Source of the DNA: Botryllus schlosseri
Taxonomy: Eukaryota
Assembly (NCBI GenBank): GCA_051294905.1
Contig: CM119372.1
Span: 9,674,001 to 9,738,000, forward strand
DNA: 64,000 nucleotides
Direction of reading: 5' to 3'
Shown here one piece after another: positions 28,310-34,700 of the stretch; position 1 is the first letter of the stretch, and each line of letters opens with the position of its first letter. The position numbers and the translations under genes were made by a program. The notes under the pieces are model-generated. The model did no database searches, was not told where the DNA came from, and worked only from the letters and a program-made list of their open reading frames with translations.

Positions 28310-29326
28310 TCATTGATTGCCTTTGCGTACTGCCGGAATCAGACCTTCTTTGTGAAGATTGATTATCGAATTGGCTACCGTCTCTGCAGCGATCTTCGTG
28401 AACCCACCAGACAGCAGCATGGCGATAGGGATGGCTCTGGCACGCACCGCTCGGAACACGACGGCGTCTCTTTTTATGACTCCTTCCGGGCTCACCCTCA
28501 ACAAACCGAGTGGATCGCCTTTCAGAATATCCACTCCGGCATTATACACGACAAAGTCTGGATGAAATTCGTCGAGTATGCTTTCGATATTGTCAGAAAC
28601 ATGGGTTAGGTATTCTTCGTCCGCGACTCCGGTTTTTATCTCGACTTTCCTGCGCACGGACACTTTGGCGTCTTCGTCTTGCGGAAATATTTCCGAATTG
28701 TACACATCGAAAATGAAGACACTGTCATCATCGATAAAATCTCTCGCATAGCCGTTACCTTGATGGGCGTCTAGGTCGACGATCAAAGCTTTGCTCATGC
28801 CGGGTATATTTTTTTGCATGTACCTTACAGCCATCGTGATATCGGCATACATGGAGAAGCCTCCAGGCGTGGCTCGATCGTGACTGCAATGGTGCTGGCC
28901 TCCGCCTAAATTTATAGCCCATCCGTGGTCCACTGATAATTTTACAGCCATTACGGTGCCGCCAGCTTGCAACCGAAATGGAGCTACGATCTTGTCTGAA
29001 ATGAACGATGCTGGCATCATTTTCAAGGCAGCGATGCCTGTAATACTCGCGATATTGGCCTTCGCCTTGAGACTGTCAAGATATTCTTTAGTGTGGATCT
29101 CCTCAAGTTCCGAATCCGTGGGAAGAGTCGGAATAGAAAACGAGCCTCCTGCTAAGAAATCTTTAACAAGTCTTCGACTGATATTTTCCGATTTACGAGT
29201 ATCAAATTTTGATAATTTCTCAAAGCCCATCATTCTCAAGTCATAGTTGCGTTCGTACACTATCGGCCAGGATCCCGGAGCCGCTGTCGTGTCTTGATCC
29301 GATTCTTTACTTGCTGACTGTCCCAT
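28310..29326 (-). CDS. HDAC11: Divergent HDAC11 paralog (class IV), intronless, catalytic Tyr replaced by Phe
   Basis: Motifs WPIVY, GWAINLGGGQHHCS, VDLDAHQGNG, YNAGVDILKGDPLG and MLLSGGF. ATG at 29324-29326 (MGQSASK); the frame is open further upstream to an acceptor-like site at 29386-29387. Confidence 0.9.
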   Translation of the reverse strand: MGQSASKESDQDTTAAPGSWPIVYERNYDLRMMGFEKLSKFDTRKSENISRRLVKDFLAGGSFSIPTLPTDSELEEIHTKEYLDSLKAKANIASITGIAALKMMPASFISDKIVAPFRLQAGGTVMAVKLSVDHGWAINLGGGQHHCSHDRATPGGFSMYADITMAVRYMQKNIPGMSKALIVDLDAHQGNGYARDFIDDDSVFIFDVYNSEIFPQDEDAKVSVRRKVEIKTGVADEEYLTHVSDNIESILDEFHPDFVVYNAGVDILKGDPLGLLRVSPEGVIKRDAVVFRAVRARAIPIAMLLSGGFTKIAAETVANSIINLHKEGLIPAVRKGNQ

Positions 29327-30240
29327 GATGTATACATTAAAGTAGAGTCTGGCCTTAGTTTTCAAATTCCGATACAGTACAGAGGCTGGAAATAAAAAAT
29401 TTCAATTAAGGTGTCACTTGCATATATAGAGATCATTATACAGAGATACTCATTGTGTTTCAAAATACGGTGGAAATTCGATCAAGGATTTCAATAATCT
29501 AAATCAGCACCGGTATGTGGATTAGAAGATGACCTTGGACCTGTAGAATTGATAGTGATAGTGGCTCATAGTGAGGTGAAAGAAAATATGAAAATATAAG
29601 TAGGATAGTAGTATCATGGTACATGGATCTAGTACATAAATAAAAAGACACATCAATGTTTCCATAGGCTATGTGTAGAAGTTCAATGGGCAGGATGACT
29701 TTGTTGCAAGAACAACTTCAGCAATCGGCAGAATTGAACAAGTGAATAAACGAAAATATATCGTGCTGAGCTTTTAGGACACAGCCCAGCAATGTCAAAT
29801 CGGAACATATGAAAATGAGAAGTTCAGCAAATTGATCTACAACCAAAATTACATTCTCATTTGGATGTAGGCATACTATTTATAAATTAGGATAACAGAT
29901 TAATTGCGCAAACGCAACTGCAAATAAATTCAGCAAAATTAGACAGAAACAAATCTGGATTGATGGAAATTAGCGCACGGTGAACAATTCATCAAAATGG
30001 ACATACATGATAGGTCACTTCAGTAATAACAAACCATGGACCTGTTGTGGTACAGTACTGACATATATATAAACAGAGGCGATCAGAGAAGTCAACATTA
30101 GTACTCTCATAGAATTAGAAGCAGCGATTTTAAAGACACGTTGAAATTACTTTGAATGGAAGTCAAAAAAAATATGGTGTGAAAGGTAGGCCTACTTTAA
30201 AACTTCCAGCAACCAGAGTCCACAACCAGACACCTAAGAG

Positions 30241-31299
30241 TCATTGAATTACATTTTTAGGACCATTCACAATGTTTTTAGAGTGTAAATTTGATATAGA
30301 GTCTGCAATAACCCTCGCAGTTGACCTTTGATATCCTCCCGAGGTGAGCATGGTGATAGGTACCCCCCTTTTTCTCGCGGCACAAAAAACGATTTCATCA
30401 CGCTCAATAATGCCGTTCGGAGAAACATCAAGGCAACCAAGAGGGTCTCCTTGCAATATATCGGTTCCGGCATTGTACACGATGTACTGAGGCGTAAAGT
30501 CCTCAAAAACTTGTTCAAGATTCTTTCGCACCACATTCAAATAATACGTATCCTTGGCACCGTGTCGAAGTTCAACCTTACGTGAAATTGCGGCTTTGGC
30601 CTCATTGTCGTTCGGATATATCATACCATTGTAGACATCAAATATATATACACGACTGTCGCCCATAAAGTCTCGGGCATACCCGTTGCCTTGATGTGCG
30701 TCGAGATCGACTACCAATACATTTTTTATGTCAGGGTAATTTTTCCATAGATATTGAATGTTCAATGTTATATCTGCATAGGCACAAAATCCACCCCCAC
30801 GGTCTGACGAGCAATGATGAAACCCTCCTCCGATATTGATTGCCCAACCTCTTTCGATAGCAAGCTTTCCAGCTAATACAGTCCCGCCTGTTTGCAGCCT
30901 GAACCTTCTCAATACTGATTTCTGAACGAAGTAGTTCGGCATAAGAGCAAGCGGTGGTATCTCCGCTATTTTTGCCACGTTAGCACTCCATTTGAGACTG
31001 TTCAAATATTCCAGAGTGTGAACCATAAGAAGCTCGTCCTCGGATACTTCCAATGGTTCCACAAATTCGTCGGAAGATAAAAGTTTCCGTTCAATCAACA
31101 GGGCGTGAATTTTACCCCATTTTCCGGCGTCAAACGGATGGAGTTTCTCCATTCCTCCGAAACTGATGTCGTATTCGGAACTATAAACCAAAGGCCAGGA
31201 AGTGTCGGGGATATCAACATAAAGTCGTGCACGCGTCACCCTACCTGCCTCATCAACTCCTGCTGCACTGTGACCATGCTTCGAAACTACTTTACCCAT
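30241..31299 (-). CDS. HDAC11: Histone deacetylase 11 / lysine fatty-deacylase, intronless, 352 aa
   Basis: Motifs EKLHPFDAGKWGK, GWAINIGGGFHHCSSDRGGGFCAYADI, DLDAHQGNG, YNAGTDILQGDPLG and TSGGYQ are all canonical for HDAC11. Confidence 0.97.
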   Translation of the reverse strand: MGKVVSKHGHSAAGVDEAGRVTRARLYVDIPDTSWPLVYSSEYDISFGGMEKLHPFDAGKWGKIHALLIERKLLSSDEFVEPLEVSEDELLMVHTLEYLNSLKWSANVAKIAEIPPLALMPNYFVQKSVLRRFRLQTGGTVLAGKLAIERGWAINIGGGFHHCSSDRGGGFCAYADITLNIQYLWKNYPDIKNVLVVDLDAHQGNGYARDFMGDSRVYIFDVYNGMIYPNDNEAKAAISRKVELRHGAKDTYYLNVVRKNLEQVFEDFTPQYIVYNAGTDILQGDPLGCLDVSPNGIIERDEIVFCAARKRGVPITMLTSGGYQRSTARVIADSISNLHSKNIVNGPKNVIQ

Positions 31300-31781
31300 T
31301 GCTTATGTTCGACGAATAATATTAGTCATCAGCTACTCGTAACACCATTCCCATTAACAATGGTGCAAAGTGCCAAGTGCCACCAGTCGCACTGGATCCT
31401 GAAGAGATACCTCAAATTTTTAACTACTCATGCAATAAAGCGCGAGACAATTAGCAAGTTTCTGATGCTACAATTATTATTAATGAATCGTAAAAATCAG
31501 AAGCTGGATTTGAAAATATACAAATGCAGGGCCATGAACAATTGAATTCTTCTTTTCACAATTTTGTTCGATATCTCAATATTGTGGATCTTTGAACTTA
31601 TAACAATATTAAATATAGTGTGCATCTACTTTACAAATGTTCGGTACTTTGCGAGTACTGACATTTGCTGCACAAAGTCACTCTGCTGCAGAAGTCATCT
31701 TGTTTGCGGCAACGTTTATATAGCGGCACGGTGTACTGTGCCGGCGTTTGCGTATGATCCAGAAGTCTGCTCGCATTCCGC
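31300..31781. promoter_or_regulatory. Putative bidirectional promoter (HDAC11 / ATPSCKMT)
   Basis: Start codons diverge with only 482 bp between them. Confidence 0.55.
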
Positions 31782-34700
31782 ATGACGAGCGAATCCATAT
31801 TTGATGATAACGCTGAAATTGTTGGTAATGCCAGCGATAATCGAAAGCGGAGTATATTTGGCTTGACTGTATTGGGTGTTACCTCGGGCGCAGTAGTAGC
31901 ATTGGTGGCAGCATGTGCGCCATTTGTCGCGCCGGCACTTCGTAGGGTACGTATATTCTAACCTCCCAAACGGTACGGCCACAGTATTGAATACGTCTTA
32001 TTTCTAATAGTACTGCCTTCCATTTGTTCCTGCAACCGGAGAGCAAGTTAAAAACGTTCTATCGGTTCTGCCTAAGACTGGTCGACTGGCTGATATTGGA
32101 AGTGGCGATGGCAGGATAGTAAGTACACGTAATGCAGATATGCCAGGGTTCACTTATTAATATTTTGATCAGTTCAAAACACAACAAGATTACGTTGGAA
32201 TGAGGAGTTTGGAACAAGTAAAACGACTTGGAATATATATTTCAATTGATCCCCCTGAGGCTAATTAATTGGATGATTGCATATCCTTGGTCGCTAGTTG
32301 AATAATCCTAATTTAAAACTGTTTCAAAATACTTTCTACTGTACACATACATACAACTTATAGTAATGAATCAACTCCTTGATGCAGATGGCGTCACCGG
32401 GTCAGTAATGGACCAGAGTAGAATTGGTGGCAATGTCACGCAGGATTTTCTGTTTAATAATTTAATTATACTATGCAGAAAAGCTCTCATCACGCAGGAT
32501 TTATTTCAAAAAGCAAACCGAGATTCCATAGGGGGTAATGGACAGTCTCAAATGGTTCAAAATATGCTTCTGGAGGTACTAACCTTCAATACTGCAACAA
32601 AAATATGTTAATATTGCGAAGTTTATTCCACTTGAAGCTTTTTGACGAGCGAACTTCGGTAAATGGGATTACCGAAATTCTTTCTTTTTCCTACGTTTGC
32701 TCCTGGTGAGAGTCAGTGGGAAAACATTGGGTTGAATATTTGTCAATATGAACATCCAATGTTACGGTTCTATGGTTAAAGGCGGTACCAAAGTATGGTA
32801 CATCTGCTTATGATTTTATTTCGAACCTGCAGCACGCGACTCGGTGTAGGGTAAGTTCATATCAGATCAACCAAAAAATGAATTTGGTCACCACCATAGT
32901 TTCAGATTTTGCTGAAATTTAGCTCAAAGCATCATAAAGTATATCTGATTAAATCACAATTGATTTGAAATGAATTACTTGTGTCGTTTTCAAGTTATGG
33001 CATTATGAGAAACAAGGTTTTTCTGCTCACTCAACCGTGAAATTGGTGAGATTTTTTCAGCCAGATTTGAAATGGCTGTAAATGAGCTTTTTTGACCTTG
33101 AGAAGTTATTCCTCTTGATATGTGATTGATATTGATCTATTCTATTATGCAAGTGACAAGTGGTATAATGGTATTGCCCATTCTGGATTTGGTCCTTTCG
33201 GGATTAGAAAATTGTTACTCATTTCTAGGTCCTTGCTGCCGCAGAGCGAGGCTTGACGGCCACGGGTTATGAGCTTAACCCATGGCTTATATTGTATAGC
33301 AAGGTATGTATACTAGCTGTGCTTTTATGGGGTGAATTAGATGTTTACTTTCAATTTTTAATGTCTATCTCCAGTTCAAATCGTACCGAATGGGATTGGG
33401 ATCCAGGGCGACTTTTGTCAAAAGAGATCTTTGGAAAACCGACTTCAAGCAGTACAACAACGTTGTAATCTTCGGAGTAACGCAAATGGTGAGGTCAAAT
33501 ATTTTAATTTGAATTGGAAATTCAGTGCTATTGTTATTTGATTCACTAATCAGAAATGTACAAGATTGTAACCGTCGAATAAGAGGAATATAATTTGAGA
33601 GAATAGGCTGGGACGTTTTCTGACTAGCAATACAGTCACCTGATTCTGTCAATCGTCAATGGTATTTTTGTAAACCATCTTTTCAAGAAACTGAACGGGC
33701 CATATGAAAACAATACATGCAGTAATAGGCCATAAACTGCTGACCCACTGTGTGTTTCATTGAAGGCATGGCCAGGATGATGATTTAGGGGAGTGTACCT
33801 CTACTTTTTTGGAGCACTCAAGTACTTATTTGAAAAATACTTTTAGAATTTCAAATATACCACTAGAACGTATGTTTTTGACTACTTCCACTTCTGAGCA
33901 GTTTTTGAAGCAAAACCGCTACTTGTCAGGACAACCAACCGAAATGGTCCTGTATCACGGTTAATTTTTGTACTCTTCTTGTATAATCCACGGTGATGTA
34001 CCTTTGAAATTTGAAAGTGGCTAGCTGGCCATGACTGATTGACTGGTAAACGTACGGAACACCTCGACCAAATCAACTTTTTGACAATACCTGAGAACTT
34101 TTCAGCCCTTTCACTTTCTACCTATACTTAAAAGTAGTTTAGACCTATCTTGGGAATCGCTACTTCTACATGTAATTTAGTGGAATTTCATGGTTACTTT
34201 ACTTGAGTAGCTATGCTGATTACTTTGACTACGTCTAGCTTCGGTGGGGGACTGGATAAACTTTTTAACAGTGAGGTGACGTCACAGATCCAAGGGGGCA
34301 CAGTGAGCAGGTGTGACGTCACAGCGTCATGTTCGGAAGGCGCAATTCAGCTGCTGGTCACGCCACGAAATTTGTGTGTTCAATCTACTGTGTGATGTCT
34401 TTGCCGTTGACCTTGACTCTACGTGTTGCTCGGATACGGCCATATGATGGCGGAAGAGAGTATGAAGAACAGATTTACGTTTGGTGTGGGGAGTTCGCCG
34501 TTTCGAGATTACAAATGAATTACGTAGATGGTAAAAATGCAATTATCTGCAATGCAATATACAGATAAGCAAAATATAAACGGGAGGCTCGATGCATTAT
34601 ATAGGATGATGTGTGATATATGATATACATATTGTTTTACAGTACCGGCAATAACTTCAATCCAATGACCTCTTCTTTTCAGATGCCGCGTTTGGAAGAG

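Follow-up and report, generated by a model that had tools for sequence, protein, structure and literature searches.

A tandem duplicate of HDAC11 in Botryllus schlosseri with a replaced catalytic tyrosine: a candidate zinc-dependent pseudo-deacylase of class IV

What function is left to a class IV histone deacetylase (HDAC) when its catalytic tyrosine has been replaced by phenylalanine? This question is raised by a 64,000-nucleotide stretch of the Botryllus schlosseri genome (GenBank assembly GCA_051294905.1, contig CM119372.1, positions 9,674,001 to 9,738,000; this whole stretch is called the window below and all coordinates refer to it), whose minus strand carries two HDAC11 genes in head-to-tail order. 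Gene A (28310..29326) is a single-exon coding sequence for a variant HDAC11 paralog of 338 amino acids that begins with the residues MGQSAS at the ATG at 29324-29326 and ends with the stop codon at 28310-28312. Gene B (30241..31299), located 914 nucleotides upstream of gene A, is a single-exon coding sequence for a canonical HDAC11 of 352 amino acids. The two products are 50% identical over 313 residues and both match the Pfam family PF00850 (3.5e-49 for A and 2.2e-55 for B). We propose, with a probability of roughly 0.55, that gene A encodes a conserved zinc-dependent pseudo-deacylase that would bind a ligand with very slow turnover or none.

The replacement in question is Phe309 of gene A, encoded by TTC at 28400..28402 (minus strand), which occupies the position of human Tyr304 within an SGGF motif where gene B reads SGGY with a TAT codon at 30331-30333. 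The TTC codon and both positions are as given in a preliminary description of this locus that was made from the sequence alone. The best four matches to gene A among 5.8 billion proteins are P0001-P0003 (64-65% identical) and P0004, a Styela clava protein annotated as 'HDAC11-like' (52% identical), all of which carry SGGF, the motif GGGQHH, a two-residue insert and an altered loop L1; metazoan HDAC11s are 44-50% identical to gene A. A profile built from these five sequences recovered the four known members from the 5.8 billion proteins at 600-685 bits, with a canonical HDAC11 next at 437 bits, and no further members of the clade were found there. The variant signature was also absent from the 149 representatives that the clade profile matched in a library of 1.84 billion proteins, in which the canonical S. 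clava protein apparently stands in for the clade. Across 122 aligned sequences the catalytic column holds Tyr in 114 and Phe in eight, the latter comprising the five variants, two paralogs from Ranitomeya and one alignment artefact. Thus Phe is present in 5/5 variants and Tyr in 114 of the 117 other sequences, as well as in 80/80 further HDAC11s collected by profile search (which likewise all hold Glu94 and Phe141) and in 135 of the 149 class IV representatives of the 1.84-billion-protein library. A sequencing error is ruled out by the orthologs that share this Phe, and its occurrence in four database proteins equally disposes of a variant private to this assembly, the other concern raised in the preliminary description. 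Two members of the 149, P0144 and P0183, were seen to have Phe at position 304 together with loss of His142 and replacement of Asp181 by Ser and of His183 by Gln; from their sequences these are fully dead class IV homologs.

Phe309 is accompanied by a set of additional replacements that are fixed in the clade. Unless given for gene A, residue numbers are those of human HDAC11, assigned by motif and by offset from residues named in published papers. A screen for alignment columns that are invariant in the five variants, and in which 80% or more of the 117 remaining sequences share a different residue, returned nine columns: P36K, E94G, F141Q, an inserted Pro in loop L3, C153S, Y209F, Y304F and a pair of conservative exchanges (gene A position 92, Val to Ile; gene A position 317, Ile to Val). 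In gene A numbering, residues K40, G97, Q144, P154, S158, F214 and F309 occur in all five clade members, including that of Styela clava, and are absent or nearly so in the 117 others and absent from the 80 further HDAC11s, so that the check for conservation among orthologs which had been suggested for Phe309 came out positive for this residue and for six other pocket changes as well. Loop L1 (29189..29212) reads S39-K40-F41-D42-T43-R44-K45-S46 in place of the HPFD(A/S)xKW motif of human residues 35-42. Within it K40 is present in 5/5 variants as opposed to Pro in 106/117 others, S39 (H35S) in 4/5 variants (Gly in S. clava, giving GKFD) as opposed to His in 112/117, and S46 (W42S) in 4/5 variants where others have Trp, Gly or Tyr. 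In loop L2, Gly97 (29036..29038) replaces Glu94 of the human protein, as mapped by an ungapped alignment to vertebrate HDAC11s (Gly in 5/5 variants, Glu in 115/117 others). The gatekeeper, Phe141 in human HDAC11, is Gln144 in all five variants and Phe (100) or Tyr (17) in the 117 others, and it is followed by an intact and invariant catalytic dyad (Gln144-His145-His146, 28889..28897). Loop L3 (28850..28870) is remodelled by an insert, Thr153-Pro154, that precedes Gly-Gly-Phe157, Ser158 (human C153) and Met159 (human A154); the insert is found in 5/5 variants and 0/117 others, and S158 in 5/5 variants as opposed to Cys in 116/117. Finally, Phe214 (28685..28687) takes the place of the tunnel-wall Tyr209, with Phe in 5/5 variants and Tyr in 116/117 others. 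All of these features lie on the minus strand. The preliminary description had correctly listed GGGQHH for GGGFHH, RATPGGFSMY for RGGGFCAY and LSKFDTRKS for LHPFDAGKW; it had missed E94G, Y209F and the parallel with another clade of class IV enzymes that is described below. Gene B retains HPFD, E94, F141, C153, Y209 and Y304.

In contrast to the remodelled pocket wall, the residues that constitute the metal site are preserved. Asp186-Ala-His188 of the DLDAHQ motif (28763..28771, minus strand), which correspond to the zinc ligands D181 and H183 of human HDAC11, are invariant in the 122 aligned sequences, and Asp266 of the NAGVD motif (28529..28531, minus strand), which corresponds to D261, is Asp in 263/271 rows; D186, H188, D266, H145 and H146 are all invariant in the five clade members. 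The third ligand had previously been placed at the Asp of GDPLG (28514-28516), which is conserved but is not a zinc ligand, the true ligand being the Asp five residues upstream. This assignment agrees with a D261A primer that alters the Asp of the YNAGTD stretch of human HDAC11 (in the accessible part of bioRxiv 10.1101/211706) and with our alignment to 9gz5 (chain index equal to the paper's numbering plus 3), which places Asp237 of Leptospira interrogans (as numbered in the available text of PMC13325672) on the same NAG(T/V)D motif. Since this Asp is invariant, the preliminary description was right to call the metal site intact, and it was equally right on the His dyad and DLDAHQ. From this conservation we infer that the gene A product binds zinc.

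For the roles of the replaced residues in class IV enzymes we draw on the available portion of a 2026 structural study (PMC13325672). Class IV HDACs are split there into clades A and B, of which clade B has a rim 'filter' formed by the HPFD motif and Glu94, and six of the eight fixed substitutions in the variants fall on residues that this study names as catalytic or as 'selectivity filters'. Glu94 is likened to the HDAC8 Asp that grips the peptide backbone, and with E94G or E84G activity falls by a factor of up to 35. The foot pocket has Phe141 as its gatekeeper, and F141T reduces four clade B enzymes to background activity. The proximal pocket is walled by the L. interrogans equivalents of G151, F152 and C153 and by the Gly-Gly-Tyr loop, with L. 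interrogans Cys134 (the C153 equivalent) lining the proximal foot pocket, and Y209 is described as a tunnel-wall Tyr. Fatty-acid carboxylates sit on the zinc where they are hydrogen-bonded to His and Tyr. In clade A, Arg occupies position 36, Gly position 94 and either Thr or Ser position 141; these enzymes lack peptide deacylase activity in vitro, and their substrates are taken to be non-peptidic. In the Chlamydomonas clade A enzyme a Y357F replacement eliminates the co-purifying hexanoate product. In addition, human Y304H is reported as inactive (Cao et al., 10.1101/211706, in the part accessible). Judged by sequence, gene A has thus lost four determinants of clade B defatty-acylase activity together, namely Y304, F141, E94 and HPFD. 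Given the behavior of the published class IV mutants (F141T, E94G and Tyr to Phe), competence to remove fatty-acyl groups from lysine peptides has probably been lost.

Several observations suggest that gene A has been maintained. All five clade ORFs (open reading frames) are intact and full length. Between genes A and B the proportion of synonymous differences (pS) is 0.87, a saturated value from which no ratio of nonsynonymous to synonymous substitution rates can be derived for the pair, and that of nonsynonymous differences (pN) is 0.37. Saturation of the synonymous sites implies that the duplication is old, and neutral drift over such an age would not have left 50% identity, which points to constraint on the sequence. 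Among the differences listed between gene A and contigs from sequencing run X1, six of eight are synonymous and the other two are conservative (I to V and V to A); for gene B, 15 of the 25 listed differences are synonymous and 10 nonsynonymous. These counts cover the listed differences, with 29 more on the same stretch. The distribution of conserved sites is also informative. We used a pocket set of 25 catalytic, rim, tunnel and foot-pocket sites that had been named beforehand in PMC13325672 (available text), with N-terminal and distal residues mapped partly by motif offset. Six of eight fixed substitutions fall within this set (hypergeometric P = 2e-6), and 22 of the 25 pocket sites are invariant within the clade versus 110 of 313 other sites (Fisher P = 2e-7). 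Consequently the pocket, in its derived state, is the most constrained part of the protein. On these sequence comparisons gene A is probably retained under constraint.

An AlphaFold2 model of gene A, built from a 79-row alignment, has a mean predicted local distance difference test score (pLDDT) of 93.8 and a predicted template modelling score (pTM) of 0.92; disorder is limited to residues 1-11, with the block 31-40 that contains L1 at pLDDT 83 and the block 151-160 that contains L3 at 96. A Foldseek search with this model returned HDAC11, HdaH and HDAC6 structures as top matches with a probability of 1.00. The best match in the Protein Data Bank (PDB) is 9gz5, the L. interrogans HDAC11 with cis-5-dodecenoic acid as ligand (E 1.6e-23, template modelling (TM) scores 0.77/0.86), and Vibrio HdaH with decanoic acid is also among the best matches. 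The structure prediction suggested in the preliminary description therefore yielded a confident model with an HDAC11 as its best PDB match. The list also contains, by their entry titles, HDAC6 Tyr-to-Phe mutants with substrate peptide or inhibitors (5efk, 6uo4 and 6uo5). Gene A is a member of the arginase/deacetylase fold within the zinc-dependent HDAC superfamily.

To describe the origin of gene A we computed a maximum-likelihood tree (LG+C20+F+G4) of 41 rows chosen from 122, which took in all tunicate-like sequences, a sampling of named metazoans and four rows from outside the Metazoa; the final tree used three of these four as outgroup. The variant clade has a support of 100/100 and is nested in a clade (99/95) with gene B, P0008, S. 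clava P0007 and P0005, outside of which fall the proteins of Ciona savignyi and Clavelina. Gene B groups with P0007, which is also annotated as HDAC11-like in Styela clava, and both halves show a parallel branching in which S. clava separates first and the species of the window follows. This nesting, together with the tandem arrangement, indicates a local duplication within an ascidian sublineage that would predate the split between the window species and S. clava. A lineage-specific duplication is also in agreement with the gene count, as a six-frame search of the whole 495-Mb, 219-contig assembly found genes A and B as the only HDAC11-type genes, the remaining two matches being partial and 33% and 23% identical. 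The stem of the variant clade has a length of 0.47.

Comparison with known systems clarifies which aspects of gene A are inherited and which are new. Relative to the clade B enzymes of human and L. interrogans, gene A shares the fold, PF00850, a phylogenetic position nested in metazoan clade B, the zinc ligands, the His dyad, and F152 plus the Gly-Gly of the Gly-rich loop, and it differs by Y304F, F141Q, E94G, SKFD for HPFD, C153S, Y209F and the L3 insert; mutagenesis of each of Tyr304, F141 and E94 is known to cripple or lower defatty-acylase activity (PMC13325672, available text, and 10.1101/211706). With clade A, represented by Chlamydomonas chrHDAC11-1/A, it shares a basic residue in place of Pro36 (Lys in gene A, Arg in clade A), Gly94 and a non-aromatic polar gatekeeper. 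However, clade A retains the Tyr and closes the pocket with an Arg-Glu salt bridge, where gene A has Phe309, Pro116 and Gln120, and the gatekeeper of gene A is Gln rather than Thr or Ser, just as position 36 is Lys rather than Arg; Arg at position 36 occurs in none of the 120 nearest sequences. Membership in clade A is rejected by the placement in clade B in the tree and by the residues at the end of the pocket. Because the tree indicates clade B descent and the variant-clade profile fits the clade B chain 9gz5 better (140.5 bits) than another solved class IV-like chain, 9rje (112.4 bits), the resemblance to clade A is, on sequence grounds, convergent.

Natural and engineered losses of the same tyrosine are known from other HDACs. 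The class IIa enzymes HDAC4, 5, 7 and 9 have a natural Tyr-to-His replacement and are commonly regarded as weakly active enzymes, as readers or as scaffolds. They share with gene A a conserved natural loss of the oxyanion-stabilising Tyr with retention of the zinc site, but they belong to a different class, have His instead of Phe, carry large N-terminal domains with regulatory roles and occur throughout the vertebrates, whereas gene A encodes a compact protein restricted to a few ascidians. Engineered substrate traps (HDAC6 Y745F and Y363F, HDAC8 Y306F) involve the identical Tyr-to-Phe change and are folded zinc proteins that hold uncleaved substrate; these are laboratory mutants with otherwise wild-type pockets, while the Phe of gene A is natural and accompanied by six further pocket changes. 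We also observed SGGF at the catalytic Tyr in two HDAC11 paralog-like proteins of Ranitomeya, P0014 and P0016 ('HDAC11-like isoform X2'). Unlike gene A these keep HP(S)FD, E94, C153, Y209 and a Tyr gatekeeper, are without the L3 insert and sit on very short branches beside Bufo HDAC11. By sequence, the Tyr-to-Phe change in these poison frogs arose separately and far more recently.

Taken together, these features lead us to the following proposed mechanism. A duplicate of a class IV clade B HDAC11 would have been kept by selection after losing fatty-acyl removal from lysine peptides. It would have retained the fold, the three zinc ligands, the His-His dyad and a highly conserved pocket, and fixed Y304F, F141Q and E94G along with H35S/P36K at the gate, C153S/A154M and the L3 insert in the pocket wall, and Y209F in the tunnel. 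A ligand may then be taken up via the zinc and the His dyad, with the protein acting as a binder, sensor or trap. The preliminary description had proposed a neofunctionalised paralog that binds acyl-lysine without hydrolysing it or acts on a different substrate; the part of this proposal that holds is that of a retained, non-decaying paralog with a remodelled pocket, and the part that is disfavored is the acyl-lysine ligand, as loss of the peptide-backbone anchor Glu94 argues against a peptide. A small carboxylate or acyl compound would be the more likely ligand, both because the peptide anchor is gone and because class IV pockets hold fatty-acid carboxylates on the zinc. Anchoring to a membrane may also occur, given that the N terminus MGQSAS of gene A fits the N-myristoylation consensus, as does MGKVVS of gene B. 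An extended version of this idea, which we advance only tentatively, is that gene A is a natural class IV 'substrate trap': in a small group of ascidians, an HDAC11 duplicate would have become a non-catalytic protein that depends on zinc, may be N-myristoylated and senses or carries carboxylate or acyl compounds, having independently re-invented three pocket signatures of the ancient clade A and dropped the catalytic Tyr.

Several alternatives to a ligand-binding pseudo-deacylase must be weighed. The main rival holds that gene A still encodes a hydrolase, whose substrate would no longer be a peptide; small-molecule amides, esters and thioesters or short polar acyl compounds would be examples. 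The polar entrance formed by Gln144 and Ser158 and the loss of the anchor would redirect specificity, and the Tyr would be either dispensable or compensated. Such an enzyme would explain why the zinc ligands, the His dyad and 22/25 named pocket sites are invariant, and P36K, E94G and the polar gatekeeper do parallel the P36R, E94G and F141T/S of clade A (PMC13325672, available text). Yet clade A keeps its Tyr, a Tyr-to-Phe change in Chlamydomonas abolished the bound product (same source), the Tyr is maintained in 114/117, 80/80 and 135/149 other class IV sequences, and no active Tyr-less member of this fold was found in the literature searched, so that we regard this possibility as rather unlikely. 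Residual, physiologically relevant deacylation of proteins in the manner of class IIa HDACs is a different matter. An intact catalytic metal site and His dyad would permit it, and class IIa enzymes are known to keep low activity despite their Tyr-to-His change, but the joint loss of Y304, F141, E94 and HPFD renders it improbable. It is no less improbable, and if anything slightly more so, that the protein is a scaffold or regulator that ignores its pocket, for example as a surface partner of canonical HDAC11 or of other proteins. Pseudoenzymes often do regulate active paralogs and genes A and B are adjacent, but a pocket that is the most conserved region including its derived residues (22/25 vs 110/313) is unexpected if it is unused.

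Least probable is that gene A is a decaying or functionless duplicate, or that its Phe stems from a sequencing or assembly error. Faster evolution than the canonical copy and weak RNA evidence would fit with decay, but the ORF is intact in 5/5 members with the same seven pocket changes, pS of 0.87 contrasts with pN of 0.37, 6/8 of the listed differences are synonymous and the same Phe recurs in independently produced records that include Styela clava RefSeq.

A number of observations do weigh against the pseudo-deacylase interpretation. Full conservation of the His dyad and zinc ligands is equally expected of an active enzyme, and the mimicry of clade A class IV HDACs by a basic residue 36, Gly94 and a polar gatekeeper favors an enzyme with a non-peptide substrate. 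The mapping of E94 is affected by a gap in loop L2 in the pairwise alignment with the Leptospira chain, and P0001-P0003 may derive from fewer than three species. The path from gene A to S. clava P0004 measures 1.37, versus 0.60 from gene B to P0007, a roughly 2.3-fold faster rate, and identity between the window species and S. clava is 53% for the variant pair and 68% for the canonical pair; the faster evolution of the variant means that some relaxation of constraint is real. Evidence for expression of gene A is weak. Contigs from run X1, the RNA nature of which is a guess, cover both ORFs at depths of 8-16 (A) and 11-35 (B). In the 6% of bulk RNA run X17 that was covered, depth is at most about 2 over each gene and 157/163 reads match only partly. 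Gene A has no reads in runs X20 and X21, the former having reads on gene B only and the latter on neither gene.

Additional features of the locus concern its transcripts and surroundings. The window has a eukaryotic appearance, with sparse ORFs and a GC content of about 0.41, and a search of its whole length against Rfam gave 0 matches at gathering score. The coding regions of A and B are both uninterrupted and single-exon. As had been claimed, the ORF of gene A is unbroken (28310..29365, minus strand); mechanically it extends to a TTG at 29365, and the start at the ATG is supported by the N terminus MGQ..S common to 5/5 clade members. A polypyrimidine tract followed by AG at 29386..29387 (minus strand), about 60 nucleotides upstream of the gene A ATG, is suggestive of a splice or trans-splice acceptor, and one X1 contig fits 29113-29387 and then continues with five unmatched letters. 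Six reads of run X17 stop at 29777 and carry loose letters resembling a template-switch oligonucleotide, and five reads at 29797 carry an unmatched 30-mer. The 30-letter consensus of these loose ends at 29797 has 0 matches within the window and no local splice partner was found for it. These read ends could mark a complementary DNA (cDNA) 5' end between the genes or could come from reads of a repeat located elsewhere. Upstream of gene B, the segment 31644-32548 has the highest coverage in X17, X21 and X1, mostly from partially fitting reads, and exhibits a 65-nucleotide skipped or replaced segment at 31945-32011 as well as a 2-nucleotide deletion at 31740. This segment probably corresponds to a repeat or to a different transcript.

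No description of a Tyr-less class IV paralog, or of this clade, was found in the literature searched, even though the S. clava variant is already in RefSeq as 'HDAC11-like'. Tunicates are not mentioned in the available text of PMC13325672, and the tree in its supplement has one S. clava HDAC11-like accession for which the paralog could not be told. Ledent and Vervoort 2006 do not discuss an ascidian HDAC11 duplicate, the sole match to 'ascidian' being in the reference list. A single class IV HDAC11 has been stated for Botrylloides leachii and other ascidian genomes (bioRxiv 10.1101/433854, 2018, in the part available), and the presence of two HDAC11 genes here and in Styela clava corrects this view of ascidians as having one class IV gene. 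The finding is narrow in scope, the known clade members being those of the window species and of Styela clava plus three further database proteins. HDAC11 is the least understood of the classical HDACs, with its physiological substrates and the idea of fatty-acid sensing still open, and a natural exchange of its catalytic and 'selectivity filter' residues constitutes an independent evolutionary test of those assignments. Gene A is also a case of convergence on clade A features from within clade B. Gene A also provides a candidate for an HDAC that binds ligands without cleaving them, which may be usable as a natural trap for class IV ligands. Should the substrate-trap version hold, gene A would offer a natural experiment on the residues that determine HDAC11 specificity, and it would be the first pseudo-HDAC11 to be described and, within class IV, the equivalent of the class IIa reader HDACs.

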